Shown here: one piece after another, positions 16,809 to 46,514 of the stretch
How the letters are laid out: the number at the start of each line of letters is the position of its first letter
How positions within the stretch are numbered: position 1 is the stretch's first letter
Assembly: GCA_029259355.1 (NCBI GenBank)
Contig: JAPDIZ010000003.1
Coordinates: 69,181-133,180, forward strand
Direction of reading: 5' to 3'
From: Candidatus Bathyarchaeota archaeon
Lineage (GTDB): Archaea > Thermoproteota > Bathyarchaeia > JAPDIZ01
DNA length: 64,000 nucleotides
Translations under genes and position numbers: made by a program
The notes under the pieces: generated by a model
Told to the model about the DNA's origin: nothing
What the model saw: only the letters and a program-made list of their open reading frames with translations
Databases searched by the model: none

Positions 16809-16810
16809 GA

Positions 16811-17332
16811 CTACACCACGCTAAAGGTTATTCTGTTCCACTGCCCAGTAAACACGAAGGTGTGGCTTTGCTCGTCGTATAGCCAAAGCTCGAAAATTAG
16901 GTCGTAGTTTTCACCAGGAGTATCGATTACGTAGTTAAACTCGAGGAGACGAGACTCCTCATTTGCGAGGAAGACCTGGTATTCCTTTATCACGGGGAGG
17001 TCAGCTGGCTTCTCCGTTGTGGGAAGCACCTTCTCATTTTGCCCAAGCTTCACCAACACACGAGCCCAGATAGCTTTTCCCATGTAGTTGTCAAGCTCTA
17101 CCCAGAGCTTGACGGGCTCTCCAGCTCTCACGGGGTTATCGGGGGTTGGGTAGTCGGTAGCCATCTTGTTCGGTCCCAAGGTAGCGATCACCACAAACCT
17201 CTCCGCTGGCGGAGGCTTGAGAGCTGCGTACGCTACAAAAGCCAGCACCAGTATCGCCGCTATCGCAACCGTTAAGACCACAGCCGTCTCTTCGCTTACC
17301 CAGACCTCCTCTTCTTTAGGCAAGGACATCAC
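16811..17332 (-). CDS. hypothetical single-pass membrane protein
   Basis: N-terminal TM helix then soluble domain; 4-nt overlap with upstream ORF and 2-nt gap to the GT2 suggest co-transcription. Confidence 0.35.
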   Translation of the reverse strand: MMSLPKEEEVWVSEETAVVLTVAIAAILVLAFVAYAALKPPPAERFVVIATLGPNKMATDYPTPDNPVRAGEPVKLWVELDNYMGKAIWARVLVKLGQNEKVLPTTEKPADLPVIKEYQVFLANEESRLLEFNYVIDTPGENYDLIFELWLYDEQSHTFVFTGQWNRITFSVV

Positions 17333-17832
17333 CCAATTTCCTTCTCAAGCAATTCTTCCAAAGACCTCTTTTCCCACCACCGCCACAGCCTCCAAGCTCC
17401 GTAAGTAATAGCCACAACAGCGACGGGTACTGTGACGTAGACTAGTATCTGCGTGATCTGTCTCCACCGCTCAGCAGATTCTCCCAAGGAATTTGCTTGC
17501 CCAACGATTTCGTTCGAGATGGCTATGGAGTTTTCGAGGAACTTCTCCGCTGCTTCAGCATCTCCAGCCTCGTAAGCCTGCTGGGCTTTGTCGATTAAGC
17601 TCTGAGCCTCGTTAAGCATCTGGACAAGCTGATTCACATCAGCGCCCTTTTCCTCAGCGCTTCTCACGGCGAGAAAGGCTTCCTCCAAAGACTTGTTAGC
17701 TTGCTCCAGCTTCTCCTGATAGCTCGCGCACGCTACAGCTGGTAGGTGAGGCGAGGAGAGCGCCATAGTTAGGATCAAGACAATTAGCGCCCAGCTGCTC
17801 GATCTGTCGGCGAACATCTCGAGGCTCTCCAC
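17329..17832 (-). CDS. hypothetical secreted coiled-coil protein with C-terminal membrane anchor
   Basis: Signal-peptide-like N-terminus, alanine/glutamate-rich helical region, C-terminal TM followed by basic tail RLWRWWEKR. Confidence 0.35.
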   Translation of the reverse strand: MESLEMFADRSSSWALIVLILTMALSSPHLPAVACASYQEKLEQANKSLEEAFLAVRSAEEKGADVNQLVQMLNEAQSLIDKAQQAYEAGDAEAAEKFLENSIAISNEIVGQANSLGESAERWRQITQILVYVTVPVAVVAITYGAWRLWRWWEKRSLEELLEKEIG

Positions 17833-17886
17833 AGGGTAATAAGCTTGATAAGAGCTTCGTGCGGTGAATTTAAGAGTTAGCGTTAG

Positions 17887-20127
17887 GTGTTCCTCGTGAG
17901 CTCATACAGACCTGTTCAGGCAACAGCTCTTCTGTTGGTTGTGTTCGTGATCGGGTTCTTCACCAGAATTCTACTGTTTACCCAAGCCCCCACACCACCC
18001 GGCGATGACGAAGCCGTGCTCTGCGGAGTTGCTTCCTACGTGCTTGAAGAGGGAAAGCTTCCCGAGAAAAACCCCTACCACATGTACGGAACGCCCTTCG
18101 TCTACCCTCCGCTTATGCACCTACTCTGCGCTCTGACATCAGCCGCTTGTGGGCTGAGTGGGTGGGGGGTGCTTGGAGCAGCGCTGTGGCTAACCATTTC
18201 GATCGATACATTCACCACACTCGCAGTGTATGCCGTGTCTAAGAGAATTCTCCAAAGCGAAGCCTGCTCGCTCCTCTGCGCGCTTGCCTACTCAGTTGCC
18301 AGCCCCCACCTCTACATGATGTGCTGGGGTGGATACGTAAACTTGCTGACGCTCTTCTACGTACCCCTCATCGTGGGGGCGCTGCTCCGTCACCTAGGAG
18401 GAGACTTTGTGAGGGGGTTTCTGACGCTAACCATCTCTCTAACAGCCGTTTTCTACTCCCACCACTTCTCCGCTGCCATCACGCTAGCGCTATTGAGCTG
18501 CACCGTGTTGGCGTTAGCAGCTACCAGAGCTCGCGAGAAGAAGACGCTGAAGTGGTTTTTCTGGGCAAGCGCGGCCACCGCATCCTCAGCAGCTGCGTCT
18601 GGGGCTTGGTACATCCCCAGATACGCTGAGTTCGCCTCGATATTCGCTAAAGCTGGAGCAGAGGCCTCCGTTTCCGCAACCCCGCAGATGATCGCTGAGG
18701 CTGCGTCCACCACCATATTGGGTATGGGGGCACCCTTTGCTGCGCTACTGCTTTGGCTCGTTGCCCTAGGCTTTGACTACGTTTGTCGAAGAAGAGGCTA
18801 TCTCGGCGTTGAGACCATATGCGTCTTCACGTGGTTTCTGGTTCCCTCCTTGCTTGGGCTACCCTTCGTATCGAAATCCCCCATGCTCTTCCAGAGATTC
18901 TTCTACTTCTCCACTCAACCCCTCGTCATACTCGCCGCAACGGGGCTGTTCTACATAGCAGTTGTGAGCGCACGGCTCAGCGACGCGCCAGCAGCTTTCG
19001 CTACCTTAGCCGTATCGATGCTTCTACTGGGATACTTCTTGGGAAACTTCTACTTCATCGGCTTGAGAGGGTTCTACGACGGAAACCTTGAGTGGTTTAG
19101 GAGCGGAGACGCTTCGACCAAGCACCTCATTAACTGGCTGTTTACGAAGTCGGAAGAAGGTTGCGTCATAGCTTCCTCTCACTCTCTCGGGTGGTGGCTC
19201 TCCGGGTTTTCACACCGCGGCATCATACCAGCAACACCAGCTAAGTTCCTAACCTTTCCCTACGAACTCGACCTATGCAGAGCAGCGTTTGTCTGCGTAA
19301 ACACATGCGTCTGGGCGGAGTCTGGAAGACACGCACTTATGGACAACGGGTTGAGGGGTGTGTTAAAAACTCCTCAAGTGTGCGTCTTGCGAGCTGGTGA
19401 GGTCTACCCGGGGATAGAGCTAGACACCAGCAAGCTATGCGTAGTCGTAAGAGAGGGGGGTGTGGTAAGGCGTTATGAGCTAAGCGATTTTGAGCCATCT
19501 CGCTCAGAGCTCGTTGCGAAGGGCAATGCGGTAGAGATGCTGTACGCCTATGAAGCAGATGAGCTTTGGCTGCGCCGAAGAGTGATATTTCCAAACAGCT
19601 CTGAAGGAGCAGATGTCTACCTAGAGGTTGGGGGAAAAGAGGTTTTGGAGGTTTGGGTTGGAGTGGATACACCCCTCGCCTACGAAAAAGCATACGCTGG
19701 CGATGGATGGGTGGGCTTCTTCGACAAAGCCGAGATGCTTGGCGCAGTAGCAGTCTTTGATCCAGAGCCACACGCGGTGCTCGGCGGAGAGGAGGGGAGC
19801 TACTTGGTCGTCTTCTGGGGAGGAGGTGGAGAGTTCCGAGCCAAGATATCGCTGCTGGTATTCGACGCCAGCAAAGCGGAGGTTAGGGAGCCGAAGGATT
19901 GGCTTGAGGAGATGATAGAGGCTAAGGTGGGGGGAGGGGGCGTAGAAGTGGCTACGGTGGACGAGCTGATGGATGTCTACAAAATCTCGTACGTAGCTGA
20001 TCAGGATGGCTACACAGCATACTCCATAGCACGCAGCCCCCGCTTCGACCTGATCTACTCCTGCTACAAAACGAAGCGAGGCTGGGAGGAGCCTACGAGA
20101 GTCTTGGTGCATAAGCGCTTGCTCTAA
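17887..20127 (+). CDS. GT-C-fold membrane glycosyltransferase (STT3/AglB-like or PMT/ArnT-like), 13-TM N-terminus plus soluble C-terminal domain
   Basis: 746 aa; N-terminal polytopic region with acidic loop PPGDDEA; C-terminal soluble domain about 300 aa; a WW-containing stretch LGWWLSGFSHRG instead of a canonical WWDYG. Confidence 0.5.
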   Translation: MFLVSSYRPVQATALLLVVFVIGFFTRILLFTQAPTPPGDDEAVLCGVASYVLEEGKLPEKNPYHMYGTPFVYPPLMHLLCALTSAACGLSGWGVLGAALWLTISIDTFTTLAVYAVSKRILQSEACSLLCALAYSVASPHLYMMCWGGYVNLLTLFYVPLIVGALLRHLGGDFVRGFLTLTISLTAVFYSHHFSAAITLALLSCTVLALAATRAREKKTLKWFFWASAATASSAAASGAWYIPRYAEFASIFAKAGAEASVSATPQMIAEAASTTILGMGAPFAALLLWLVALGFDYVCRRRGYLGVETICVFTWFLVPSLLGLPFVSKSPMLFQRFFYFSTQPLVILAATGLFYIAVVSARLSDAPAAFATLAVSMLLLGYFLGNFYFIGLRGFYDGNLEWFRSGDASTKHLINWLFTKSEEGCVIASSHSLGWWLSGFSHRGIIPATPAKFLTFPYELDLCRAAFVCVNTCVWAESGRHALMDNGLRGVLKTPQVCVLRAGEVYPGIELDTSKLCVVVREGGVVRRYELSDFEPSRSELVAKGNAVEMLYAYEADELWLRRRVIFPNSSEGADVYLEVGGKEVLEVWVGVDTPLAYEKAYAGDGWVGFFDKAEMLGAVAVFDPEPHAVLGGEEGSYLVVFWGGGGEFRAKISLLVFDASKAEVREPKDWLEEMIEAKVGGGGVEVATVDELMDVYKISYVADQDGYTAYSIARSPRFDLIYSCYKTKRGWEEPTRVLVHKRLL

Positions 20128-21353
20128 GGCCTTGAAACCTCTTGGTACAGCTCCTCCAGCGCACAGACTATCCGGCTCCAGTCGTATTTCTCAGCCGTAG
20201 CCAAGCAGTTTTGGCACATCTCAGCGTACTCACTTCTCCCCACTCCTTGAATGAGGTAGAGCATAGCTTCCGCAAACTCCTCTGGGTCGTTAGGCCTAAC
20301 AACCAACCCATTGAAGCCATTTCTCACGTAGTCTAGGGCGCCGTTGTGGACATGATTGACTACGATGGGGGGTGTACCCACGGACATCGCCTCCAAAACA
20401 GACATTGCAAAGCCTTCTCGAACAGATGGAAATGCGAAGACGTGCGACGACGCAACGGTGCGCAAAAACTCCTCGTGCCCCAGCACCCCCATAAAGGTAA
20501 CAGCGTCCTCTACCCCCAAGCTCTTCGCCTGCTTCTCAAGCGATTCTCGAAGAGGGCCGTCTCCGATTATCCTCAACCGAACGTCTCGAGAGACTTTGCG
20601 AACCTTGGTGAACGCGTGGATCAGCACATCCACCCTTTTGTGATGGACAAGCCTCCCCGCATAGACGATCTCCTTCACCTCGCTCAATGCCTTTTCACGA
20701 GGCTTTTTTGCAAGCCTCCGATTAGCTGCTGAGTCTACTCCGTTGGGTACGACTGCTATCTTCTGGCTCGCTCTACCGCCGAGGTAGTTCTTGAGGTTCT
20801 CCGCTGTTCTACTGGATACGCAGACAAAGCGCTTTGGGAGGTCGTAGCAGAGCTTTTCAACAGCCATCCCCATGGTGGCTAGGTACTTGTTTGAGGCGTA
20901 ATCTCTCCAGTAGCTCCCCCAAACCTCGTGGACGGTTAGCACAAACGGAGCCCGCCAAAGAGACGCAAGCATCCTTGAGGAGAAGACGTGTAGGTAAGGG
21001 AATGCGCTGCAGTCAACCACATCAAACCTGTGCTTCTTGAAGACGAGCTGAAGGAGGGAAAGGGCGAAGAGGATGGGTGGCCCAACTCTTCTAACGGATT
21101 CATCTCCAGCTTCGCTCGGCTCCACCTCGCGCACGTATGGAGCATGCCTATACAGCATCTCCCAGCGAAACTTCATTACCCTATACACTGATACGCCGTC
21201 GACGCTCTCGCTTCTAGGACGATCGGGGGGTCCTATGGCGAAAACGTAGACGTCGTGCTTCTTAGCAAGCCTCCTAGCTATCTCGTAATACCGCCTCTCC
21301 ACACCCCCTCGCTGGTAGGGGTAGAAAAGCTCGGGTATTAGCGCAATTCTCAT
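20124..21353 (-). CDS. GT4 glycosyltransferase (GT-B, group 1)
   Basis: C-terminal E-x7-E-type region (FAFPSVREGFAMSVLEAMSVGTPPIV). Confidence 0.8.
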   Translation of the reverse strand: MRIALIPELFYPYQRGGVERRYYEIARRLAKKHDVYVFAIGPPDRPRSESVDGVSVYRVMKFRWEMLYRHAPYVREVEPSEAGDESVRRVGPPILFALSLLQLVFKKHRFDVVDCSAFPYLHVFSSRMLASLWRAPFVLTVHEVWGSYWRDYASNKYLATMGMAVEKLCYDLPKRFVCVSSRTAENLKNYLGGRASQKIAVVPNGVDSAANRRLAKKPREKALSEVKEIVYAGRLVHHKRVDVLIHAFTKVRKVSRDVRLRIIGDGPLRESLEKQAKSLGVEDAVTFMGVLGHEEFLRTVASSHVFAFPSVREGFAMSVLEAMSVGTPPIVVNHVHNGALDYVRNGFNGLVVRPNDPEEFAEAMLYLIQGVGRSEYAEMCQNCLATAEKYDWSRIVCALEELYQEVSRP

Positions 21354-30704: not shown

Positions 30705-31847
30705 TTGAGATGCTTAGGTGTCTGTGGAGAAGGGGGTCGTTGCTTCGTGGGATATGAAGTTTCTAAGGCTTTGGTAACTGGCGGAGCAGGCTTCGTAGGC
30801 GTAAACTACGCCAAACACCTCCTTGATCGAGGGGTTGAGGTCGTTGTATACGACAACTTTGGGAGAGGCCCTGGGGGAAAGATAAACTGCGAGTGGCTTA
30901 GTAAGCACCCCAACGCCAACAAGCTAGAGGTTGTTGAAGGAGACGTGAGAGACTTCGAGTCCTTGAAGAAAGCTGCCTCTGGATGTGATCTCATCCTCCA
31001 CGCTGCTGCGCAAGTATCGGTTCCGCTGTCCATGGAGGAGCCCAAGGTAGACTTCGAGATCAACGTGTTGGGAACCTTTAACGTGCTCGAGGTTGCGCGA
31101 AGCCTAAACACAGACCCAGCCGTGATCTACACCTCGACGAACAAAGTCTACGGAATCCCTGAGTACGAGCTGGTGGAACTGGAGACGAGATACGACTTCA
31201 CTGGCGACCTGCTTGGGGTTGATGAGAAAGCTCAGCTCAAAGCTGAGGAGCCCTATGGAGCAAGCAAAGCCGTTGGAGACCTCTACGTGAAGGCGTATCA
31301 CAACATCTATGGCCTAAAAACCGTCTCCTTCAGGTGCTCCTGCATGTATGGACCGAGGCAGTGGGGCGTTGAAGAGCAGGGATGGGTTGCGTGGTTCTGC
31401 ACCGCCTTCGCCCTAGGATACCCCATCACCATCTTCGGCAACGGAAAGCAGGTTAGAGACCTCCTATACATAAGCGACGTAGTAGAGGCTTTCGACCTCG
31501 CACTCGACAACATCGACAAAGTAGCTGGTTTAGGCATCAACTTAGGTGGTGGAAAAGAAAATGCGGTTTCGCTTCTAGAGGTCATCGCATACCTCGAGCA
31601 GCTCTCTGGCAGAAAAGTCGATATCCAATTCACCGACTGGCGACCATTTGACAACAAGTGCTACTACACCGACATCACTCTCGTTAAGAAGCTGCTGGGG
31701 TGGATTCCAAAGGTTTCTTGGCGCGACGGAGTGAGAATGACTTACGAATGGGTTAAGGAAAACCTCGAGGTTATTGAAGAGGTGTATCGCTCCAAAGAGG
31801 GAAGAAGCTTAAGACCTATGGTGGAAGCCGCAAAGAAACATGGCTGA
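30705..31847 (+). CDS. NAD-dependent nucleotide-sugar epimerase/dehydratase (extended SDR) with Cys-rich N-terminal extension
   Basis: TTG start; ALVTGGAGFVGVNYAKHLL; Y-x3-K (YGASKAVGD); N-terminal MRCLGVCGEGGRC leader precedes the Rossmann motif. Confidence 0.75.
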   Translation: MRCLGVCGEGGRCFVGYEVSKALVTGGAGFVGVNYAKHLLDRGVEVVVYDNFGRGPGGKINCEWLSKHPNANKLEVVEGDVRDFESLKKAASGCDLILHAAAQVSVPLSMEEPKVDFEINVLGTFNVLEVARSLNTDPAVIYTSTNKVYGIPEYELVELETRYDFTGDLLGVDEKAQLKAEEPYGASKAVGDLYVKAYHNIYGLKTVSFRCSCMYGPRQWGVEEQGWVAWFCTAFALGYPITIFGNGKQVRDLLYISDVVEAFDLALDNIDKVAGLGINLGGGKENAVSLLEVIAYLEQLSGRKVDIQFTDWRPFDNKCYYTDITLVKKLLGWIPKVSWRDGVRMTYEWVKENLEVIEEVYRSKEGRSLRPMVEAAKKHG

Positions 31848-31993
31848 CGAATAGATCCACGGCCTTCTGCCTTCACAAAAAACTGAGCAGCCATACCCAC
31901 TACCACCAATAAGTATAAACCTTTGTGATTTTGGGGGGAGGTTTACGGAGCCCTTCTGGAGCTGATAGACGCTCCCTATAGGATTATTGAAGG

Positions 31994-32827
31994 GTGAGAG
32001 TGCAGGGAGCTATGCAGAAAGTCCTAGAAGAAGCTGCTGCTCAACCTTGCTACGGAACTCCATACAGATATTTAATCAGACTTCATCTACACGCCTTCGT
32101 AGAGGAACTCCTGAAGAAAACTCCCAGAGAGCTTCTAATTCTAGACGTAGGCTGTGGAAAAGGCGCGTACTCCCGCGTATTCAGCAACTTCCAAACACTC
32201 GGTAAGTACGTAGGCGGAGATATCGAAGCGTTTCGAGACTCTTGGAAGCAAGCTAAGAGGCGTTTTGAGGGAAAGTTCTCAGCTGACTACATCTGCTTTG
32301 ACGCAAACCACCTACCTCTCAAGGACGACGCATTTGACGCTGTGCTGTGCATAGCAGCTCTTGAGCACATAAAAGACGATGAGTCAGCGGTAGAGGAGAT
32401 CGAAAGGGTGTTGAGGAAGGAGGGGGTAGCTTATGTATGGGTTCCAAGCAAGGGCACATGGTTGTTTGATTTAGGCAAGCACGGCTACCACTTCTACTCT
32501 CTCAAAGATATCGTCAAGCTCTTTGAGGGAAGAAGACTCACCATCAGCAAAGTCATGCCAACAGGAGGTACACTTTGCTTCATCACCACCTGCCTAACTA
32601 TTTGGCTCAAACTCGTCATCTCAGCGATCGCGTTGGCTCTGGGGATAAGCAAAGATAGGAGGAAGTACTTGGCAGATGGCGTCGATCGCCTAAGGATTAA
32701 GTTAGGAGAGGCTTACGACAAAGCCCTCAAGTATTGCGTGAGGAAAGATTTTGCTGCTGGCAACAAGCTCCCAGGCGGTTACTCCATAATCATTTACAAG
32801 CGTTTTCCTTCTAGAGAAATGGTGTAG
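31994..32827 (+). CDS. class I SAM-dependent methyltransferase
   Basis: Motif I LILDVGCGKGAYS. Confidence 0.7.
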   Translation: MRVQGAMQKVLEEAAAQPCYGTPYRYLIRLHLHAFVEELLKKTPRELLILDVGCGKGAYSRVFSNFQTLGKYVGGDIEAFRDSWKQAKRRFEGKFSADYICFDANHLPLKDDAFDAVLCIAALEHIKDDESAVEEIERVLRKEGVAYVWVPSKGTWLFDLGKHGYHFYSLKDIVKLFEGRRLTISKVMPTGGTLCFITTCLTIWLKLVISAIALALGISKDRRKYLADGVDRLRIKLGEAYDKALKYCVRKDFAAGNKLPGGYSIIIYKRFPSREMV

Positions 32828-32863
32828 AGAGGCACCATTCAGATCTATTCGATTTGGCGAGAG

Positions 32864-33997
32864 GTGAACTACTTGCAAAGACGCGAGTTTAGAAAAATTC
32901 CCTTCATTGATTTGGTCAGACAGTACGAATCGATTAGAAACGAAATTGACTCAGCTATAAGCAGCGTCATCGAGCGAGGAAAGTTTATTCTTGGAGAAAA
33001 CGTTGAGCAATTCGAGAAAGAGTTTGCTCGTTTTTGTGGAGTGAAGTATGGGGTGGGAGTTGGTTCGGGAGCAGATGCTCTTCTATTCGCCCTCAAAGCA
33101 CTTGGTATCGAAGCTGGGGATGAGGTGATCACAACGCCTTTTACCTTCGTAGCGACGGTTAACGCAATAGTGCTTGCTGGAGCAAAGCCTGTATTCGTTG
33201 ATATCGACCCCGACACCTACTGCCTATCCCCTGATAAGCTTAAGAAGGCGATTACCTCTCGAACCAAAGCCATAATCCCTGTGCATCTCTATGGACACCC
33301 ATGCGACATGAAGCCCATTCTCGAGGTGGCTGAGGAATATGGGCTCTACGTCGTTGAGGATGCCTGTCAAGCACACGGAGCGCAGTACTATGGAGCAAAA
33401 GCAGGTTCGTTTGGAATATGCGGGTGCTTCAGCTTCTATCCGACCAAAAACTTGGGAGCGTTTGGAGATGGAGGAATGGTCGTCACCAACGACTACGAAC
33501 TCGCTGAGAGAATAAGGCTGCTTAGAGCGCAGGGGCAGAGATCGAGATACAGTTACGAGGTAATTGGCTACACCAGTAGGCTTGATGAAATTCAAGCAGC
33601 TATTCTGAGAGTAAAGCTAAGACATCTCGAAGAGTGGAATGAAAAGCGTAGGGAAAAAGCTAGGACCTACTCGAAGCTCTTAAGCGAACTTGACTTAGTC
33701 TTGCCCATAGAGAAAAACTACGCTAAGCACGTCTACCACCTCTACGTAATTAGATGCAGCAGACGTGATGAATTAGTTACTTTTCTAAACCAAAACGGAG
33801 TTGAGGCGCTCATCCATTACCCAACACCCATTCACTTAGCAAGTGGATACCGCTTTATGAGGTACAGCTCAAACTCATTCCCCGTCTCCGAGCGATGCGC
33901 TAAGGAAGTGGTTTCGCTACCCATTTTCCCCGAACTCAGCGTCGAAGAAGTGGAATACGTCTGCTCGCTGTTGGAGGAGTTTCTGAACAGCTACTAA
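32864..33997 (+). CDS. DegT/DnrJ/EryC1/StrS-family PLP-dependent nucleotide-sugar aminotransferase
   Basis: GVGVGSGADALLFALKALGIEAGDEVITTPFTFVATVNAI; DACQAHGA; lysine-containing FSFYPTKNLGAFGDGG. Confidence 0.85.
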   Translation: MNYLQRREFRKIPFIDLVRQYESIRNEIDSAISSVIERGKFILGENVEQFEKEFARFCGVKYGVGVGSGADALLFALKALGIEAGDEVITTPFTFVATVNAIVLAGAKPVFVDIDPDTYCLSPDKLKKAITSRTKAIIPVHLYGHPCDMKPILEVAEEYGLYVVEDACQAHGAQYYGAKAGSFGICGCFSFYPTKNLGAFGDGGMVVTNDYELAERIRLLRAQGQRSRYSYEVIGYTSRLDEIQAAILRVKLRHLEEWNEKRREKARTYSKLLSELDLVLPIEKNYAKHVYHLYVIRCSRRDELVTFLNQNGVEALIHYPTPIHLASGYRFMRYSSNSFPVSERCAKEVVSLPIFPELSVEEVEYVCSLLEEFLNSY

Positions 33998-34011
33998 TGA
34001 GCAAAAACTTG

Positions 34012-34623
34012 TTAGGAACAGGGTTTTCTCGCTACCACCACATACCCCGTCGTCCAAGCTTCGCTACAGCCTCTATCTAGCCTGCTCAAGAGGTGTGCAA
34101 AGAGCCACAGAGGATACTTTATGAGCGGTGGGAAGCGCTCCCCCCACACGTGTATGAGAGAACCAACCGATGTAAACAGCCCACCTTGAGACTCGATGAG
34201 GTCCACGCTGAAGCCCAGTTCCTCAAGAATCCTCCTCACCCCCCTAGGGGTTATCCTCCAATAATCCTTCTCATCATGTAGTGGGTAAAGAAACGGCGTA
34301 GACAATATCAGGACGCCATCATTGACCAAAACCCTCCTGACCTCTTCCAACGCCTCGCCCGGCTTTTCCAAATGCTCCAAGACCTCGGTGCATATCACAG
34401 CATTGACGGACCTCCCCCTGATCGGAAGGTGATGCGCGTCCGCGACCACATCCACCTTATGGCTCGACTTATCGATGTCGAGCCTGATAGACTTGACTTG
34501 AGGGAGTTGAGAGTATGGAGACGCACCCGCGCCTACGTCGAGAACGACTCCCTTGATTCCGCGGCATAGCTTAAGCATAGCTTGATCCAAGAGCTTGCGC
34601 CGAGGCGTTCTGCAGATAGCCAC
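34012..34623 (-). CDS. class I SAM-dependent methyltransferase
   Basis: GVVLDVGAGASPY motif I; 203 aa. Confidence 0.7.
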   Translation of the reverse strand: MAICRTPRRKLLDQAMLKLCRGIKGVVLDVGAGASPYSQLPQVKSIRLDIDKSSHKVDVVADAHHLPIRGRSVNAVICTEVLEHLEKPGEALEEVRRVLVNDGVLILSTPFLYPLHDEKDYWRITPRGVRRILEELGFSVDLIESQGGLFTSVGSLIHVWGERFPPLIKYPLWLFAHLLSRLDRGCSEAWTTGYVVVARKPCS

Positions 34624-34714: not shown

Positions 34715-36028
34715 TTGAAAATAGGCTTGGTAACCGAGTTTTTCCCTCCCTACATACTTGGTGGAGGAGAGCTTAGCGTAAAAGAATTAGGCAAAGCGCT
34801 GGCAGAGGCTGGCGAGGAAGTTTACGTCATAACACCTAGCTACGATGGGTGGAGAGGGGAACTCAGCTTAGACGGATACACCGTCGTGTACTACCCTTTT
34901 CCCCTCAAACAAGCTTTTGATCACAGATACCTAGTCGGAAACCCCCTCTTCTTTAGGTACATGGCTAGGGAAGTTGGCAAAGCCTGTTCGAAGTATTCGA
35001 TAGAAATCTTGCACGCGCAAAACAAGTACGCCGTCCCAGGAACCATATACGCTGGGGAAAAAGCCAGCATCCCAGTTGTAGCAACGCTGAGAGATACCAT
35101 AGCTATCTGCGAATTCGGCATATGCTTGCTCAGTTTTCCACACAAACCTCCTAGGTGGTGTAGCTTCTGGAAGCGACTGCGCTGTTGCATAAACTTTCTA
35201 GAGATGTATAGCGATAGTGTCTCGACTCTGGATAAGCTAGTAAAAGCTCCTCTACTAGCTACTTACTCAGCTTACTTAGCTCGTGTCTTGAGAAGCGATC
35301 TTCGAAAAGTGGACAAGATAGTTTTCGCAAGCCAAGGGCTTCTGGAAGTCTACGCTAGCCTAGATCTCCCGCGCGAAAAGCTAGCAGTTATACCCAACAT
35401 CCCTCCTCGCATAGAGGCGAAGGCAGGGAATCACCGAGACGTTAGGAAAAGCTTAGCCGTCGGGGAAGACGCTTTTCTCGTGGTGTATGCGGGTAGGATC
35501 TCTTGGGGAAAAGGAGTCCATACGCTTTTAGAAGCTGTACGCTTGCTGATGAGAAGAGGTGAGGCAAAGAATCTGAAGGTGGCGCTGGTTGGAGGAGGCT
35601 TGGTGAACCGCTTCACAGAAATCAGCAGAGAATACGGGCTTAACGATTCTGTGATGTTTTTGGGTCCTCGCCCCCACGACTTCGTACTCTCGCTTGTTGC
35701 ATCATCTGATGCTGCTGTCATGCCATCTGTGTGGCCAGAACCTCTGAGCAGGTTTGTTCTGGAAGCTATGGTGCTATCCAAGCCCATAATCGCCACGAGA
35801 GTTGGGGGAAACCCAGACGCCGTCATAGACGGAGAAAACGGCTTCCTTGTCAAACCCAGTAGCCCCACAGAGTTAGCAAACGCTCTATCCAAGTTGATCA
35901 ACAACCCCGACCTACGCAAAAAGATGGGGGCTCGAAGCAGAGAACTCGTTAAAGAGATATTCAGCAGAGAGGAGATCGTGAAGAAAACGCTCGACCTATA
36001 TCGCGATGTGTTGGAGGCGAAGCGTTAA
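34715..36028 (+). CDS. GT4 glycosyltransferase (GT-B, group 1)
   Basis: N-terminal KIGLVTEFFPPYILGGGE; C-terminal VMPSVWPEPLSRFVLEAMVLSKPIIATRVGG. Confidence 0.8.
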   Translation: MKIGLVTEFFPPYILGGGELSVKELGKALAEAGEEVYVITPSYDGWRGELSLDGYTVVYYPFPLKQAFDHRYLVGNPLFFRYMAREVGKACSKYSIEILHAQNKYAVPGTIYAGEKASIPVVATLRDTIAICEFGICLLSFPHKPPRWCSFWKRLRCCINFLEMYSDSVSTLDKLVKAPLLATYSAYLARVLRSDLRKVDKIVFASQGLLEVYASLDLPREKLAVIPNIPPRIEAKAGNHRDVRKSLAVGEDAFLVVYAGRISWGKGVHTLLEAVRLLMRRGEAKNLKVALVGGGLVNRFTEISREYGLNDSVMFLGPRPHDFVLSLVASSDAAVMPSVWPEPLSRFVLEAMVLSKPIIATRVGGNPDAVIDGENGFLVKPSSPTELANALSKLINNPDLRKKMGARSRELVKEIFSREEIVKKTLDLYRDVLEAKR

Positions 36029-37944: not shown

Positions 37945-38065
37945 TTGGCTTCCTCGCTCTTAAGGAGGTTTTCGTAAAAAGATGTTGACGCTACAGCATC
38001 TCTAGTCAGTAGTCAAGTTCTTTAAGAAGCATGTCAAACGAGATTATTGCGGGATAGGTGGTCAG

Positions 38066-39019
38066 ATGCGGCGCATCACCATAGCTATCCTCGTCGTGCT
38101 GCTTTCTGCCCTAGTCATCGTTTTGCTGAAGCCCATGGGAGAAGCGGTTAGCAAGCCAGAGCTTGAGTGGAGCAGCGACGTCAAGCCTGGCTCAGGGCCT
38201 GGTCAGCCCCCGCCCGACATGCCTCCCGACGCTGATGGGCCGTGGAATCACCGCATACTGATTGCGTGCTCATCCGATGGGCTATCTTGGCAGAAAAAGT
38301 ACGTAATTTTAGCTGACCAAGCATCTGTTCCAGACGCCATCATCGACAAAGAGGGGAACATACGCGTATACTATTGCGACTACTTCAACGGCGGGATCAC
38401 CGTAGCCATATCCAAAGACGGCGAGAACTGGATCTATAAGCGAGTAAAGGGCTTATCCCCGGAGTGGGCTGACCCAGACGTAGTCATCCTACCCGACGGG
38501 AGGTATAGGCTATACGCTTCATACTTCCCCTTGGTGGGGAGCCAAGACCGCATAGTATCCGCTATCTCAGAAGACGGCATCAACTTCATACCCGAGGAGG
38601 GAAACCGCTATCATGAACCCGGAACTCTGCTAGCCGACCCCGATGTCTTCTGGGCTGGAGACCACTGGGTCATGTTCGTCGATACAGGCGGAGCCTTGAT
38701 CATGCTAACCTCAGAGGATGGGCTCAACTTCACGAAGATTGGGGAATTGGAGCTTGAAGTTGATTCTGGAGGTGTATCTTGCACAATCCCCGTCGAAGGT
38801 GGGTACAGGATATACTTCCACCGCGGCAAGCCTCTTCAAATCTACTCCGCCTTTACATCAGACCTCAAAAACTGGTCAGAGCCAGTGCTCGTGCTTGAGG
38901 CTGGCGAACCCGGGTCACTCGACGAGTTTGGAACCGCGGATCCTGCGGTTGTCAAGCTTCCACAAGGGGGATACCTGATGTTCTACAAAACCTGGATAAA
39001 CCCGCCAAAAAGCCTCTAG
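38066..39019 (+). CDS. secreted BNR/Asp-box repeat beta-propeller protein (putative glycosidase-like)
   Basis: Signal peptide MRRITIAILVVLLSALVIVLL; four Asp-box-like repeats (SSDGLSW, SKDGENW, SEDGINF, SEDGLNF). Confidence 0.6.
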   Translation: MRRITIAILVVLLSALVIVLLKPMGEAVSKPELEWSSDVKPGSGPGQPPPDMPPDADGPWNHRILIACSSDGLSWQKKYVILADQASVPDAIIDKEGNIRVYYCDYFNGGITVAISKDGENWIYKRVKGLSPEWADPDVVILPDGRYRLYASYFPLVGSQDRIVSAISEDGINFIPEEGNRYHEPGTLLADPDVFWAGDHWVMFVDTGGALIMLTSEDGLNFTKIGELELEVDSGGVSCTIPVEGGYRIYFHRGKPLQIYSAFTSDLKNWSEPVLVLEAGEPGSLDEFGTADPAVVKLPQGGYLMFYKTWINPPKSL

Positions 39020-39024
39020 CCACT

Positions 39025-40014
39025 CTACGATTTTACAAAAGCAAGCTTTGGGAAGCGCCTCCCAAAGAAGAAGCCGATTAGGTGAGAAGCCGTCACGACT
39101 GGGTAGTAGACAAGCGATGCCAACCAAACCAAGGGGTTCTTCGTACGGATCATTGCGCGCAAGAAATAGGCTAAGTCTACGATCAGGGCTGCAGAGAGAA
39201 ACGCGTAGACCAAGGTTATGGCAGTCTCTACTCTCAGCAGAGCCCATAGAAGAAGAGAGAGCGAAATCATCAAGAGATAGGCGATGAATAGATTGCTCAG
39301 CAACCGCTTAGCTCTCCACGCGCCATATAGGGAGTCGCAGTAGCCTAAGCCAAGACCTTGCCTAAGCTCCTTCCTCGCTATAGCGCGCAACCCATTCTCC
39401 ACTTCATGAAAAACCACTGCATTAGGCTGGTAGACTATTTGACAACCAAGAGCCTTGAGGATTCTGTGAGCTATTTCTTGGTCTTCACATGCGACCAGCT
39501 CCTCGTTGAAGCCTCCAACAGCCTCTACGACGAACCTTCTGTAGGCGCAGTTTACCGTTGAGAAGTCTTGCCCAGGTTTCATCACTCGCCTCTGCTGCTT
39601 TGCCTTAGCCAAAAACCCCAATTCCCTTACCTTTGAGAAGATGCCTCTAGATTTCATCGGAAGCTGCCTACCTACGACGCCACAAACCTCCTTCTCCTCA
39701 AACTCCGACAACAAGCTCTCAAGCCATCGGGAGTCGGCTACGCAGTCTGCGCTGATGAAGCAAACATACTCTCCTTTCGCACTCGAAACCCCGACGTTTC
39801 TAGCGTGCCCAAAGGTGTGTTTTCGCTCAATAACTACGCGCGCACCCATTTCCTCAGCAATCTCCTTAGTCCTATCTACCGACTCACCATCGACAACGAT
39901 TATCTCATAGGATTCTCGGGGAAGCGTCTGCTTTAGAAGCGAGTCGATGCAAGCGCCTATGCTATCCTCTTCGTTTCTGGCTATGATGATCACAGATGCT
40001 AGCAGTTTCTCCAA
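39025..40014 (-). CDS. GT2 glycosyltransferase with C-terminal transmembrane segments
   Basis: SVIIIARNEEDSI...IIVVDGESVDRT (GT2 nucleotide-binding region); hydrophobic C-terminus. Confidence 0.75.
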   Translation of the reverse strand: MEKLLASVIIIARNEEDSIGACIDSLLKQTLPRESYEIIVVDGESVDRTKEIAEEMGARVVIERKHTFGHARNVGVSSAKGEYVCFISADCVADSRWLESLLSEFEEKEVCGVVGRQLPMKSRGIFSKVRELGFLAKAKQQRRVMKPGQDFSTVNCAYRRFVVEAVGGFNEELVACEDQEIAHRILKALGCQIVYQPNAVVFHEVENGLRAIARKELRQGLGLGYCDSLYGAWRAKRLLSNLFIAYLLMISLSLLLWALLRVETAITLVYAFLSAALIVDLAYFLRAMIRTKNPLVWLASLVYYPVVTASHLIGFFFGRRFPKLAFVKS

Positions 40015-42401: not shown

Positions 42402-42743
42402 TTGGAGGCGTACTACCTAGCCTTAGCAGCCTTTGGCGCGTTGATGGCTTACCTAACCTTTAGGGAGTATCGAAGGCGGAGGATTAGGCTAAGCAGCTTA
42501 ATCCTCTGGGAGATGCTATGGGTTTCGATCACGGTTTTCTGTCTATACCCTCCGCTGATAACCATAGCCATCGAAGCGCTGAACGTCGCTTTGCCAGTCC
42601 ACCTCTTCTCCGTTGCATCCATTCTGGTTCTCTTCGTGTTGGTGTATAGGCTATACGCAAAGCTTGAGGAGCTCAACAAAAACCTCATAAGGCTTGCGAG
42701 AGAGGTTGCGCTACGCCAGCTCGATGAGGAGCAAAAGAGCTAG
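42402..42743 (+). CDS. small membrane protein, DUF2304-like (GT2-associated)
   Basis: 113 aa, about 3 TM helices followed by a short helical tail; 3' end overlaps the convergent GT2. Confidence 0.45.
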   Translation: MEAYYLALAAFGALMAYLTFREYRRRRIRLSSLILWEMLWVSITVFCLYPPLITIAIEALNVALPVHLFSVASILVLFVLVYRLYAKLEELNKNLIRLAREVALRQLDEEQKS

Positions 42744-43414
42744 AGCAGGTGTCTCTTGACGAAGTCAACGAATATCTTAACCCCATCGAACACCCCAGTT
42801 CCCTTCTTCATCGAATACTCGCTGTATATGGGCGTAACCGGCACCTCAGCTACCCTACATCCAAGCCTAATAGCTTGGGCGATCATGTCAGAAGCCCAAG
42901 CAAATCCCGTTGGAAACTCCTCTAGTGCATGGAGGAGGCGTCGAGACAAGGCTCTGAAACCAGACTGGGAGTCGGAGAGGGAGTATCTACAAACCGCTGA
43001 AGTTATCGATGTGAGGAGCTTGTTGCCCAATCGCTTTACAAAGGGTATTGAAGAAGTGTCACCAGCGAACCTAGACCCAATCACCAAGTCAGCCTCCCCC
43101 CTCTTCACGGGCTCAGCCACAGCTGGTATCTCGTCGGGGTTGTGCTGTCCATCAGCGTCTATCATAACAACTACCTCGGGGTCGAACCTCTTCGCAGCCT
43201 CAAGCCCAGTGTATATGGCAGCGCCTACGCCCAAGTTGAAGGGATGAGAGAGCACTAGCGCACCAGCGTCTGCAGCTTTTTCAGCTGTTCTATCCACGCT
43301 CCCATCGTCAATAACCAAGACGATAGGGCAGTGCTTTAGAGCTCCAGCTACAACATCGCCGACTGTCGCCTCCTCGTTGTACGCAGGTATTACGCAGACC
43401 ATCGATGTCCTCAA
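42740..43414 (-). CDS. GT2 glycosyltransferase, polyprenyl-phosphate hexose synthase-like
   Basis: VCVIPAYNEEATV, VLVIDDGSVDRT, MIDADGQHNPDE. Confidence 0.8.
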   Translation of the reverse strand: MRTSMVCVIPAYNEEATVGDVVAGALKHCPIVLVIDDGSVDRTAEKAADAGALVLSHPFNLGVGAAIYTGLEAAKRFDPEVVVMIDADGQHNPDEIPAVAEPVKRGEADLVIGSRFAGDTSSIPFVKRLGNKLLTSITSAVCRYSLSDSQSGFRALSRRLLHALEEFPTGFAWASDMIAQAIRLGCRVAEVPVTPIYSEYSMKKGTGVFDGVKIFVDFVKRHLL

Positions 43415-43421
43415 GGCTCGC

Positions 43422-45086
43422 CTATCCCCTAACTACGTAGTATGAGCCAATACCCGTATCTGTTATGCGGTTACCCCTAGGCAGGTAAGCCAATATGGGC
43501 ACGTGAGACTCTACCAAAAAGTATCCCCTTCTCCACACCTCGGCTTTGATCACAAGCGTGCTTCCCTCTTCCCAGGGCTGAAGCCTGTACATACACCTAC
43601 ACTTCCCAAACTTCCCTGTGTAGAGCGTGTTTATCCAGTCTCCGCTTTTTACGACGTGAACTTCAGCATCCTGCATAGCCATGCCATGCTGATCTACGTA
43701 ACACCTAATCTCCACGTACTCTCTGTTGCACATTCGAGCAGAGACTTGTACGCCGTAGCAATTTCCAACCGTGTCACGCTTCATAACCCTAATCTCTCTA
43801 GCAACGTATAGAGCTCCCGCTTTGGGGTTGTTGACTCCCAGCTTTTGAAGCAGCAGCATATCCCAGTTGGTGGATTTCGACCAAGAGCTACAGACAGATT
43901 GCGCTGAAAGGTTGCGTAAGATCCTCGTCGCCACCACGTCTTGCTTGAGGTAGAAGCTATAGTTGGACACGTACTCGACGGAGTATGAAACCAGCTCGAC
44001 CCCTAGCACCGCTACCACCAAAAAGGATACCACGAGTGGGGGAACGAGCTTAGCTCTGTTTGGCAGACGCACGCCCCTCTCGTAGAGAAAAGGCCAAAAA
44101 ACCGTAGTCGAAGCAAACAGCGCTATCGGAAGCGAAGCATAACACGCAAGCCTTTCTGGGCTGCCAAAGGTGTAGATCAGCCTAACGTGCATGAGCGAAA
44201 GAGGTATGAGAGCCCAGAGAGCGAGGAAGACCAAAGCCTGCTCGTTTAGCTGCCTTCTCCTCGCAAGAGTAGGGACTGCGAAGAGCGAAGCAACCATCAA
44301 AGCAGCTAAAGACAGTCCGAAAAGGTGGACGTATGGAAAGTAGAGCACGATCGAGGGCTTAGCCCAGACTACTGGAAAGGTGTAGAATCGTACCAAGGCT
44401 TTGGCACAAGCTTCGTAAAGAACTAGGAACAAGGCGAATGCTAATAGGATGGCGGCAAACCCAGCCCTATCTCTCCTCAAAAGCTTGATCGCTGCAGCAT
44501 ACGCCAACACCACTGCGAAGGTGAAGAATAGCGTAGGTGAGTGGGTTATGAGCATTCCTACGATCAAGAGAGCGTAGATAGCCCAAGCTCTTTTCGTAGA
44601 CTCTGACATCGCTATCATCAGAGCAGTAGCTGACAGCATATAGTAAGAGAGTATGAAGGGGTAGAGGCCACAAGCCAGTGCCTCAACCTCGCGAGGCGAT
44701 AGAGCGAGTAACAGAGCCGCTAACCCACCGACTCCATGAGAGCGAGCGAATCTCCTGCCTAGAGCGTAAGCGGGGATAACGAGCAGAGCCGAGGAAACCG
44801 AAGCAAACGCCTTGGTTGCCTCAAAGATTTGGGAGAGGTCTCCGCCTCCCCAAATGGCGGTCGAGAGGCAGAGGAGGATGTGCAGAGCTGGTGGATACCT
44901 CTGCGAGATAGAGAGCTGCTCAGCCGAGAGGCTAGACATACCAAGCATTAGGAAAACGCGCTGTAGGTGAATAGCTGGATCCTCTCCAAGCGGTGGAAGC
45001 GATAGGCAGAGCAAACGCACTCGAATGAAGAGGGCGAGGAGGAAGATCAGCGAGAGCGTGAAGATGGCTTTGCTGGAGCCTCGCAA
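43422..45086 (-). CDS. polytopic membrane protein with C-terminal soluble domain (possible GT-C-like)
   Basis: 554 aa; N-terminal two-thirds strongly hydrophobic; C-terminal roughly 170 aa Cys-containing soluble domain. Confidence 0.4.
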   Translation of the reverse strand: MRGSSKAIFTLSLIFLLALFIRVRLLCLSLPPLGEDPAIHLQRVFLMLGMSSLSAEQLSISQRYPPALHILLCLSTAIWGGGDLSQIFEATKAFASVSSALLVIPAYALGRRFARSHGVGGLAALLLALSPREVEALACGLYPFILSYYMLSATALMIAMSESTKRAWAIYALLIVGMLITHSPTLFFTFAVVLAYAAAIKLLRRDRAGFAAILLAFALFLVLYEACAKALVRFYTFPVVWAKPSIVLYFPYVHLFGLSLAALMVASLFAVPTLARRRQLNEQALVFLALWALIPLSLMHVRLIYTFGSPERLACYASLPIALFASTTVFWPFLYERGVRLPNRAKLVPPLVVSFLVVAVLGVELVSYSVEYVSNYSFYLKQDVVATRILRNLSAQSVCSSWSKSTNWDMLLLQKLGVNNPKAGALYVAREIRVMKRDTVGNCYGVQVSARMCNREYVEIRCYVDQHGMAMQDAEVHVVKSGDWINTLYTGKFGKCRCMYRLQPWEEGSTLVIKAEVWRRGYFLVESHVPILAYLPRGNRITDTGIGSYYVVRG

Positions 45087-45098
45087 CTCCTCCCCCAG

Positions 45099-46514
45099 CT
45101 AGCTACGCTGAAAAGCTTGTGGAGGCCTACCCAACCCCCTCCAGATAAAGCCCAGCTCTATCGCGTGATTTGGGTCTACTATTCCTCTAGCGTCTACTAG
45201 GACGCAGGGCTTCTTAACCAGCGACCAAACTCTTTTCCAGTCCACTTCTTGAAAAGCTCTGTGCTCAGTAGCGACCACCACAGCATCAGCTCCCTCCACC
45301 GCTTCATACACAGACGAAGCAGTCTCTGCTGGAGCCTCCTTCACATACGGGTCAAATGCTACGACTCTAGCTCCTTCTCCGACTAGCCTCTCTATCAGCT
45401 TTAGAGACTGGCTTTCGCGCGTGTCGCTCGTCTCTCCCTTAAAGGCTAAGCCGAGCACAGCTACTCGCGACTTCCTCACCTCTTTACCAGCTTCCAAAAG
45501 CCCGTCGCGAAGCAAATCCAACACGTGGAGGTACATCGAGCTGTTTAAGTTCCTAGCTGAGACTATTAGGCTGGTGTCTATCCCCAGCTTTTCACCCACA
45601 GCAGCTAAGAAAAGCGGGTCTTTGGGTAAGCAGCTCCCACCAACCAGCCCTGGGTTCAATATGTTTACAGAGGAGTAGCCGCGGGACAAGGTGTTGGCTG
45701 CGGAAATCACCTTTCTCACATCTGCGCCGTAAGTTTCGCAGAAGAGGGCTATGAGGTTTCCGAGAGCTATCGACACGTCGATCCAGAGGTTGTCAGCAAG
45801 CTTAACCAGCTCAGCTGCCCTAGGGTTTCCCACGTCGATGGTTTCTAAGCCTAGGCATCTGAAGAAGGCGACGACGCAGTCTCTACTCCTTGGGCCGACT
45901 GCTCCCACGACTACAGGAAGCTTTGCCAACTCCTCCAAAGCCCTACCCTCTGACAAGCGCTCTGGGCAAAACGCTAGGGCAAAGTCTTGCTCAGCCTTCA
46001 GCCCGCTTCCATGCTCTAAGGCTGGCTTAAGCAGCTCCTCCGTAGTTCCCGGAGGAACCGTTGACTTCAGCACAACAACCTGACCAGCTCTGAGGCGGCT
46101 AGATATAGCCTCTGCAGCGCTTCTCAGATACCTTAGCTCCGCGCTTCCATCCACCCCTAGCGGAGTACCAACCGTTATCACTATCACGTTGGAAGATTCC
46201 ACGGCGTAGGCTGAGTCTGTGGTAGCCTCTAACATCTTAGACGCTATGCATGTTTTCAGAGCTTCCTCGAGCCCAGGCTCAAAGAAGGGGGTTTCTCCTC
46301 TCCTAACCTTCTCAACGACTTCTTCGCTCACATCTACTCCAACAACCCTTATCCCCCTTTGAGCCATGAAGGCTGAGAGGCAGAGCCCGACGTAGCCAAG
46401 CCCGAAAACAGATGCGACGAGTTTACCCGATTTGTGCCATCGATCGATCTCGTCGGGCGTGGGTATGGGCATAGAGACACCACACAACAATTGCTCAGGC
46501 TTCTTCATACCCAC
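45099..46514 (-). CDS. UDP-glucose 6-dehydrogenase / nucleotide-sugar dehydrogenase
   Basis: N-terminal NAD-binding VFGLGYVGLCLSAF; central region with catalytic Cys (GGSCLPKD). Confidence 0.85.
   Translation of the reverse strand: MGMKKPEQLLCGVSMPIPTPDEIDRWHKSGKLVASVFGLGYVGLCLSAFMAQRGIRVVGVDVSEEVVEKVRRGETPFFEPGLEEALKTCIASKMLEATTDSAYAVESSNVIVITVGTPLGVDGSAELRYLRSAAEAISSRLRAGQVVVLKSTVPPGTTEELLKPALEHGSGLKAEQDFALAFCPERLSEGRALEELAKLPVVVGAVGPRSRDCVVAFFRCLGLETIDVGNPRAAELVKLADNLWIDVSIALGNLIALFCETYGADVRKVISAANTLSRGYSSVNILNPGLVGGSCLPKDPLFLAAVGEKLGIDTSLIVSARNLNSSMYLHVLDLLRDGLLEAGKEVRKSRVAVLGLAFKGETSDTRESQSLKLIERLVGEGARVVAFDPYVKEAPAETASSVYEAVEGADAVVVATEHRAFQEVDWKRVWSLVKKPCVLVDARGIVDPNHAIELGFIWRGLGRPPQAFQRS

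Follow-up and report, generated by a model that had tools for sequence, protein, structure and literature searches.

An exported five-bladed beta-propeller with a short Asp-box in every blade, a putative glycoside hydrolase of unclassified family from a Bathyarchaeota archaeon

We analysed a stretch of 64,000 nucleotides (hereafter the window) from contig JAPDIZ010000003.1 of a Candidatus Bathyarchaeota archaeon and focused on a gene for a 317-residue protein, which an initial annotation had described as a secreted Asp-box (BNR) beta-propeller suggestive of a sialidase or glycosidase. The body of this protein is a propeller of the arabinanase/levansucrase/invertase-type superfamily, which comprises the glycoside hydrolase (GH) families GH43, GH159, GH32, GH117, and GH130. 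With a probability of about 0.5, its most likely role is that of an extracytoplasmic glycoside hydrolase of an unclassified family. The fold and the superfamily are well known, and the family itself passes no curated model. Judged from sequences and model, its distinctive features appear to be a short Asp-box in all five blades, a closing blade built from both termini, a conserved N-terminal extension, and a putative active center formed by aspartates only.

Propeller fold and superfamily

The AlphaFold2 model, built with a 70-sequence alignment, is confident, with a predicted local distance difference test (pLDDT) score of 95.1 and a predicted template-modeling score (pTM) of 0.89. A helix at residues 2-20 leads into an ordered Pro/Gly-rich extension, after which 20 strands group as 2 + 4x4 + 2 and hence form five four-stranded blades, not six. 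The closing blade is assembled from the C-terminal strands A and B (residues 291-310) and the N-terminal strands C and D (residues 62-84); joined in this way, it aligns with the other four, the identity between blades being 12-36%. Two elements recur. The inner strand opens with x-D-P-x-V (V-P in one blade, absent in another), followed by a D-G turn, and a short repeat motif is located in the hairpin between strands C and D.

Four repeats of the type S-x-D-G-x-x-W/F had initially been noted. All four strict copies are present, but the total is five, the last copy being the degenerate TSDLKNW; each blade thus carries one S/T-x-D-G/L-x-x-W/F motif, at spacings of 47, 52, 48, and 48 residues. Among 200,000 composition-preserving shuffles, none contained three or more strict motifs (four observed) and none contained four or more relaxed ones (five observed). 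With seven residues, the motif is one shorter than S-x-D-x-G-x-T-W, no residue being inserted between Asp and Gly, and is therefore an s-Asp-box. As described by Quistgaard and Thirup, the s-Asp-box is characteristic of the five-bladed propellers of GH32 and GH43, with one to three copies each (PMC2716378). In the window protein it is found in all five blades.

When the family profile was compared with the sequences of the PDB, the GH159 enzyme Ch_Gaf159A (7zei) ranked first (E 6e-11), followed by GH130 entries (7fip, 4e-9; 9fj8, 1.5e-8) and, at lower ranks, by GH117, GH32, and GH43; sialidases did not appear before E ~1e-4. The top Foldseek matches to the model were GH159 7zei (E 8e-9), GH43 4qqs and 3qef, GH130 9fj8 and 9gph, GH32 7znr and 8bet, and GH117 4u6b. 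Based on these two rankings, the protein belongs to the five-bladed furanosidase/GH130 superfamily and not to the sialidases, and by sequence and model it appears roughly equidistant from the known families of that superfamily. In a Pfam scan of the query, BNR_2 (15 bits against a cut-off of 31.4, E 0.016) and GH32N (13.2 against 22.1) both remained below threshold, and neither GH43 (PF04616) nor Glyco_hydro_130 was matched. Scanned singly, the 70 aligned members gave weak matches to BNR_2 (24/70), GH32N (14/70), and GH43 (7/70) and to nothing else relevant; multi-copy relatives pass PF04616 solely through summed partial matches. The best NCBIfam match was NF052550, the beta-1,2-mannobiose phosphorylase model of GH130, with 25.8 bits against a cut-off of 450 (E 5.9e-6).

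The sialidase part of the initial annotation is not supported by these data. An exo-alpha-sialidase (GH33) would be in line with the Asp-box-like repeats, with the weak BNR_2 matches of the query and its relatives, and with the database name of one relative, and sialidases do occur far down the profile and fold lists. GH33/BNR propellers share the Asp-box kind of hairpin motif between strands C and D of each blade, and a distant common ancestor is probable (PMC2716378). However, GH33 enzymes have six blades and an eight-residue Asp-box, whereas the window protein has five blades and the seven-residue short form, lacks both the Arg triad and the RIP motif, and compares with human sialidase Neu2 at a TM-score of only 0.42 and a root-mean-square deviation of 7.6. 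The sole RIP candidate, H62-R63-I-L, is poorly kept, R63 being Arg in 167 of the 351 unique domains over which conservation was measured. A sialidase activity is hence extremely improbable. One bacterial member of the family, P0069, is named 'exo-alpha-sialidase' by NCBI; as the propellers of this family are five-bladed, carry Asp-boxes of the short type, and lack the Arg triad, this name is probably an over-annotation.

Ch_Gaf159A (7ZEI), the best match in both profile and fold searches, is likewise a single-domain five-bladed propeller of ~300 residues. Its catalytic D142 is aligned by D136 of the window protein, the patterns of acids over blades 1, 3, and 4 can be brought to match, and both proteins have a D...R pair (blade positions 1 and 13) and a Met in the next blade. 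At an identity of 16-17% and a TM-score of 0.53, the differences are nevertheless considerable. The window protein has Ala190/Asp191 in place of the general-acid Glu and no equivalent of the metal-binding His244, its chain start is shifted by half a blade, which leads to the closing blade from both termini, and the s-Asp-box of every blade is a further difference. It is also exported, while GH159 enzymes are intracellular.

Members of GH32 (1UYP, 8BEQ; clan GH-J) also carry s-Asp-boxes in several blades (PMC2716378). Their R-D-P motif aligns with A-D191-P, followed by a common V-F-W..W-V-M stretch, and the permuted closing blade of the window protein resembles GH32 blade 1, D-P..G.Y.MFY...S.D...W. 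In contrast to GH32, the protein has no C-terminal beta-sandwich domain and stays below the GH32N cut-off, and in the GH32 register the nucleophile position (WMNDPNG) corresponds to Val88 and the E-C acid/base motif reads S238-C239.

The highest-scoring sequence-profile alignments (35-38 bits) were obtained with GH130 (7FIP, 9FJ8, 5A7V), whose members have S-x-D-G/L-x-x-W/F hairpins in several blades and whose proton-donor Asp, in E-D-P-R (E/Y-D-P-R), aligns with D191-P192 in the best of these alignments. Together with the best NCBIfam match, this could point to a GH130-type glycoside phosphorylase. GH130 phosphorylases have no signal peptide and use an Arg/His pair for phosphate binding (PMC7660257). 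The window protein has a leader, carries Lys308 in place of the His, and belongs to a family in which the Arg position is not conserved; phosphorolysis is disfavored by the leader and the absent Arg/His pair, and also by the large distance from the NCBIfam cut-off and the missing Pfam match. A levansucrase-like extracellular transglycosylase, building a polymer outside the cell, would be a related option, as GH68 enzymes are secreted five-bladed propellers, but no GH68 structure was among the top profile or fold matches. Either of the two activities is very unlikely.

Conserved residues and candidate active site

Conservation over the 351 domains was highest for D136 (98%), D191 (97%), V88 and P89 (95% each), and R148 (91%), followed by D292 and W201 (86% each), R248 (85%), H62 (70%), K308 (69%), and D105 (68%). 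A predicted propeller lacking conserved acidic active-site residues had been named initially as grounds to refute the glycosidase-like reading, but three conserved acids are present. Each of D136, D191, and D292 opens a D-P motif where an inner strand begins, a position used for the catalytic carboxylates in GH43, GH32, GH130, and GH159; the equivalent residues of the remaining two blades are Val88 and Gly236. The motifs D-Q-A-S-V-P-D and Y-Y-x-D-x-x-N are each restricted to one blade, and by propeller topology the loops bearing them should lie on one face. This asymmetric conservation among the blades suggests a single site for the whole propeller instead of a separate one in every blade.

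In the best alignment with 7zei (31.5 bits), D136 corresponds to D142, E190 falls on A190, immediately before D191, and D19 is left unaligned. The Ch_Gaf159A variants D19A, D142A, and E190A are inactive (PMC9278983). Compared by blade order with the triad of GH43/GH159, i.e., Asp (blade 1), Asp (blade 3), and Glu (blade 4), D292 would be the candidate for D19, in a register that is ambiguous. The best GH130 alignment (38.5 bits) sets D191 on the Asp of E-D-P-R, the family proton donor. With the closing blade as the starting point, the order of acids around the ring is D,-,D,D,- as compared to D,-,D,E,- in GH43/GH159, which is the same register as in the 7zei alignment. The alignments with D142 and E-D-P-R and the ring pattern support a GH43-like inverting center with an Asp as the acid.

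In the mechanism that we propose, the protein would be anchored by its N-terminal helix or freed by signal peptidase, and would act on an extracellular or cell-surface glycan, the sugar being bound in the funnel atop the central channel. The inner-strand-start aspartates of three blades may serve as general base (D292), pKa modulator or transition-state stabilizer (D136), and general acid (D191). Such a center would resemble those of inverting GH43 and GH159 enzymes, with the acid provided by the Asp of a D-P motif as in GH130. By analogy, the nearest precedents for the substrate are furanosides or beta-mannosides.

Several observations weigh against a hydrolase. No glycosidase model in the Pfam and NCBIfam scans was reached at cut-off by the query, and the Foldseek similarity is modest, with TM-scores of 0.50-0.57 at 13-20% identity. 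The alignments reveal neither a conserved Glu acid nor an equivalent of the metal-binding His. The blade register is also ambiguous. With GH32 chains and with the Pfam GH32N and GH43 models, D191 comes to lie at the blade-3 Asp (R-D-P), which puts Val88 at the nucleophile/base position and S-C at the E-C motif and leaves blade 4 without an acid; in an alternative GH130 alignment (20 bits), the Asp of E-D-P-R falls on D292. Moving the C-terminal strands to the front, in a circularly permuted family profile, did not settle the register; it gave no full-length GH43/GH159 alignment and a third register for GH130. D292 is substituted in ~10% of the domains. Finally, four of the five blades have a D-P motif, and the aspartates could hence be structural or ion-binding.

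The main alternative is a non-catalytic surface propeller, i.e., a glycan-binding (lectin- or carbohydrate-binding module-like) or scaffold module whose D-P aspartates would stabilize the channel or bind a cation. The presence of the D-P motif at the same position in four blades that are otherwise of low mutual identity, the missing Glu acid, and the failure to pass a curated glycosidase model agree with this possibility, and propellers of clan GH-F commonly hold a central Ca2+ (PMC9278983). On the other hand, the conservation is asymmetric, with Asp as the first motif residue in three blades and Val or Gly in the other two, and D136 and D191 match experimentally essential catalytic positions of GH159 and GH130. 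A purely structural role in a salt bridge would, moreover, be expected to show Arg-Asp covariation, which was not found. We regard a non-catalytic role as possible but less probable than hydrolysis.

A specific form of such a salt bridge, between an Arg in strand B of one blade and the Asp at the start of the next, was considered separately. The query fits this pattern in 5/5 blades, yet the pairs do not covary in the 351 domains, and R100 is conserved in 39% as compared to 98% for D136; the clasp was consequently dropped.

Distribution and domain partners of the family

A homologue search returned 242 matches, nearly all unnamed or "hypothetical". An exhaustive profile search of 1.84 billion representatives yielded 996 proteins at E<=1e-30 and 3821 at E<=1e-10. 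At the stricter of these thresholds, the family thus comprises ~1000 clusters at 50% identity; it is large and unannotated, and its members come from archaea and bacteria that are uncultured. Archaeal genome matches come from Bathyarchaeia/Hecatellales (62-69% identity), Hadarchaeia, Methanomethylicia, Thermofilaceae, Hydrothermarchaeota, Micrarchaeota, and Nanoarchaeota, bacterial ones from Bryobacteraceae/Solibacteraceae, Dehalococcoidia, Planctomycetota, and Opitutae.

An N-terminal hydrophobic leader is present in 63 of the 70 aligned members, often preceding a Thr- or Pro-rich linker, and a lipobox-like Cys in at least 12. With the confident propeller model and best matches that are all glycoside hydrolases or phosphorylases, the initial view of a secreted propeller of the glycosidase-like kind is supported. 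Multidomain relatives contain two to six tandem propellers, or join the propeller to a type-I dockerin, a TIM-barrel glycosidase-like domain, NHL repeats, PQQ-type propellers, or CARDB. The TIM-barrel domain matches Glyco_hydro_cc with 24-29 bits (cut-off 21) and stays slightly under the cut-off of GH39. In several of the closest relatives (L011, L027, P0124, and P0017; 55-65% identity), a dockerin replaces the membrane helix of the window protein. The leaders, the lipoboxes, and the fusions to dockerin and TIM-barrel domains consequently point to a module that is consistently displayed outside the cell alongside carbohydrate-active domains.

The domain partners also bear on the question of catalysis. 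The export of the family and the dockerins and TIM-barrel glycosidase-like domains to which close relatives (55-65% identity) are fused count in favor of a hydrolase. Tandem arrays of two to six copies would also suit a binding module, and the proximity of propellers to a separate TIM-barrel glycosidase-like domain and dockerin, or their fusion to NHL or PQQ-type propellers, is likewise in agreement with a non-catalytic role.

More tentatively than the hydrolase assignment itself, we propose that the protein could be the founding member of a new GH family of surface five-bladed propellers, with an s-Asp-box per blade, a two-ended closing blade, and an all-aspartate center (D292/D136/D191). Such a family would be widespread in archaea (Bathyarchaeia, Hadarchaeia, Methanomethylicia, and DPANN) and bacteria (Acidobacteriota, Dehalococcoidia, and the candidate phyla radiation) and displayed via a membrane anchor, a lipid anchor, or a dockerin, with one copy recruited to a surface-glycan locus in this genome. 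If catalytic, the proteins would add an unclassified glycosidase family of about a thousand 50%-identity clusters and correct automatic "exo-alpha-sialidase" labels on relatives. They would then also fill a gap in the carbohydrate-turnover inventories of archaea from sediments and the subsurface, among them Bathyarchaeia and Hadarchaeia, for which extracellular enzymes have been deduced mostly from annotation. If non-catalytic, they would represent a common surface glycan-binding module of these lineages. As no new mechanism emerges from the present evidence, the value lies in annotation and enzyme discovery and not in concept; the family is a reasonable target for the latter and an annotation fix, with nothing that would strongly surprise a specialist.

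Two further observations were made among the relatives. In P0124, P0017, P0126, and the archaeal loci L011:404-2731 and L027:3974-8290, the type-I dockerin lies immediately upstream of the propeller, and dockerin-bearing archaeal relatives often add an N-terminal TIM-barrel glycosidase-like domain and PQQ-type propellers; these architectures hint that Bathyarchaeia-like and Methanomethylicia lineages display carbohydrate-active proteins by means of cohesin-dockerin pairs. The giant protein P0134 (5844 residues) has ~20 consecutive profile matches with a regular repeat of ~50 residues (…GYATSSDGITWT…GKFD…V.KDGSTYRMWY…). As most copies are without the D136/D191 pattern, it was left out of the family as a blade-level relative from a different repeat family; it looks like a separate and highly repetitive s-Asp-box propeller array.

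The gene and its glycan-related surroundings

The open reading frame is a real gene, of ordinary composition. A Shine-Dalgarno-like GGTGG 5-9 nt and a TTTAAG box 40-45 nt before the start codon both lie inside the 121-bp spacer to the divergent upstream gene and may represent expression signals. Neither the Rfam scan nor the tRNA scan gave a match in the window, and a scan for bacterial-type promoters and terminators gave background level only. The leader contains a hydrophobic stretch of 18 residues with a Kyte-Doolittle mean of 2.9-3.5, which coincides with the predicted helix, and could function as a Sec signal peptide or as a signal anchor. With small residues at -3 and -1 (G25 and A27), G25-E26-A27|V28 is a possible signal-peptidase site. 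The extension that follows has the family motif F-E-W-x-S-D-x-x-P-G-x-G...DGPW. All coordinates are listed in Table 1.

Table 1. Features of the propeller gene and of its surroundings in the window
Feature	Position	Strand	Basis or remark
Complete coding sequence, 317 residues: leader, conserved extension, five-bladed propeller	38066-39019	+	ATG start; one copy within the window
Possible archaeal promoter and ribosome-binding elements: TTTAAG box (38021-38026), GGTGG (38057-38061)	38021-38061	+	Sequence only; putative function
N-terminal leader, residues 1-27: MRR, 18-residue hydrophobic helix, KPMGEA	38066-38146	+	Hydropathy, helix prediction
Conserved Pro/Gly-rich N-terminal extension, residues 28-57	38147-38236	+	Modeled, pLDDT ~94
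Five-bladed beta-propeller, residues 58-312, 20 strands	38237-39001	+	AlphaFold2 model and Foldseek
s-Asp-box 1, SSDGLSW (residue 69, closing blade)	38270-38290	+	Motif search
V88-P89-D90, in D-Q-A-S-V-P-D, the most conserved family motif; inner strand of first complete blade	38327-38335	+	Conservation
s-Asp-box 2, SKDGENW (residue 116)	38411-38431	+	Motif search
D136-P137-D138; D136 aligns with catalytic D142 of Ch_Gaf159A	38471-38479	+	Alignment and conservation
s-Asp-box 3, SEDGINF (residue 168)	38567-38587	+	Motif search
D191-P192-D193; D191 aligns with GH130 proton-donor Asp (EDPR) and GH32 RDP Asp, one residue past GH159 E190	38636-38644	+	Alignments
s-Asp-box 4, SEDGLNF (residue 216)	38711-38731	+	Motif search
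s-Asp-box 5, TSDLKNW, degenerate (residue 264)	38855-38875	+	Motif search
D292-P293; D292 candidate general base in GH43-like register	38939-38944	+	Conservation, blade order
Phosphoglucomutase/phosphomannomutase	14691-16064		
746-residue protein	17887-20127		No Pfam match
GT4 glycosyltransferase	20124-21353	-	
4,6-dehydratase/epimerase-type short-chain dehydrogenase/reductase	30705-31847		
Methyltransferase	31994-32827		
DegT/PseC-type aminotransferase	32864-33997		
Second methyltransferase	34012-34623	-	
GT4 glycosyltransferase	34715-36028	+	
639-residue protein, ~12 transmembrane helices	36025-37944	-	Divergent from propeller gene
GT2 glycosyltransferase	39025-40014	-	Convergent with propeller gene
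DUF2304 small membrane protein	42402-42743	+	
GT2 glycosyltransferase, 224 residues	42740-43414	-	Best match PpgS
Polytopic membrane protein, 554 residues	43422-45086	-	No family match
UDP-sugar 6-dehydrogenase	45099-46514		

The neighbors named in the initial annotation, a divergent 639-residue polytopic membrane protein and an adjacent GT2, are indeed present. The stop codons of the GT2 and the propeller gene are 5 nt apart, and the propeller gene is a monocistronic unit flanked by opposite-strand genes. Packing is tight at the convergent gene ends: the 3' ends of the GT4 and the 639-residue gene overlap by 4 nt, and the close stop codons of the propeller gene and the GT2 (39019-39027) leave no room for separate terminators. 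The surrounding region of ~16 kb (30.7-46.5 kb) encodes three GT4 and two GT2 glycosyltransferases, a DUF2304/PpgS-like lipid-sugar module, a sugar dehydratase, an aminotransferase, and a dehydrogenase. From its sequence, the tailoring set at 30705-34623 suggests a local glycan with an amino-dideoxy, possibly methylated, sugar.

Based on this position, the initial annotation had proposed that the protein trims or remodels the exported glycan. In this genome the putative hydrolase may act on the glycan of the flanking cluster, and a dedicated trimming or remodeling enzyme, comparable to the hydrolases in bacterial exopolysaccharide operons, would be a sub-case of the hydrolase assignment. The location of the gene between the 12-transmembrane-helix orphan and the GT2 within the glycan region, with more such genes at 14.7-21.4 kb, the arrangement kept in an orthologue, and the extracytoplasmic location that the protein would share with the presumed glycan products are all consistent with such a role.

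To compare contexts, all open reading frames of 46 related loci and the window were clustered, and relatives were searched with phmmer (E<=1e-3) in flanks of up to 10 kb. The propeller was the sole family common across the loci; other recurrent neighbors reflect the synteny of close relatives, as for the radical-SAM/ThiS/methyltransferase genes in Hadarchaeia. GT2 or GT4 relatives were found in the flanks of 0/45 other loci, archaeal and bacterial. With the GT2, GT4, membrane, dehydrogenase, and aminotransferase proteins of the window as queries, relatives were detected only in L005, a 97%-identical orthologue with an identical arrangement. Because the context is confined to this orthologue, a link to the glycosyltransferase cluster by gene neighborhood can be argued for this organism alone. 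The propeller gene is, moreover, its own transcription unit, no neighbor is conserved beyond close relatives, and the closest paralogues of the propeller are domains of dockerin-bearing multidomain proteins. A dedication to the local glycan is thus rather unlikely, and the initial proposal is not sustained by the comparison.

The 639-residue neighbor has no sequence match in Pfam, NCBIfam, or the PDB, and its homologues are its own orthologues only; among 5.8 billion protein clusters, just two match, the protein itself and an 89%-identical orthologue. As a guess, this orphan could be a highly divergent polymerase/ligase (Wzy-like) or a GT-C enzyme. The three-gene module at 42402-45086 resembles the mycobacterial PpgS/Rv3632 and GT-C arrangement, in which a lipid-linked sugar donor feeds a glycosyltransferase outside the membrane. 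Its 224-residue GT2 matches best the polyprenyl-phospho-N-acetylgalactosaminyl synthase PpgS (E 1e-50, under the curated cut-off) and also AglJ and a dolichyl-phosphate hexose transferase. Glycan-related genes reach further in the window, the phosphoglucomutase/phosphomannomutase, the 746-residue protein, and another GT4 being encoded at 14691-21353.

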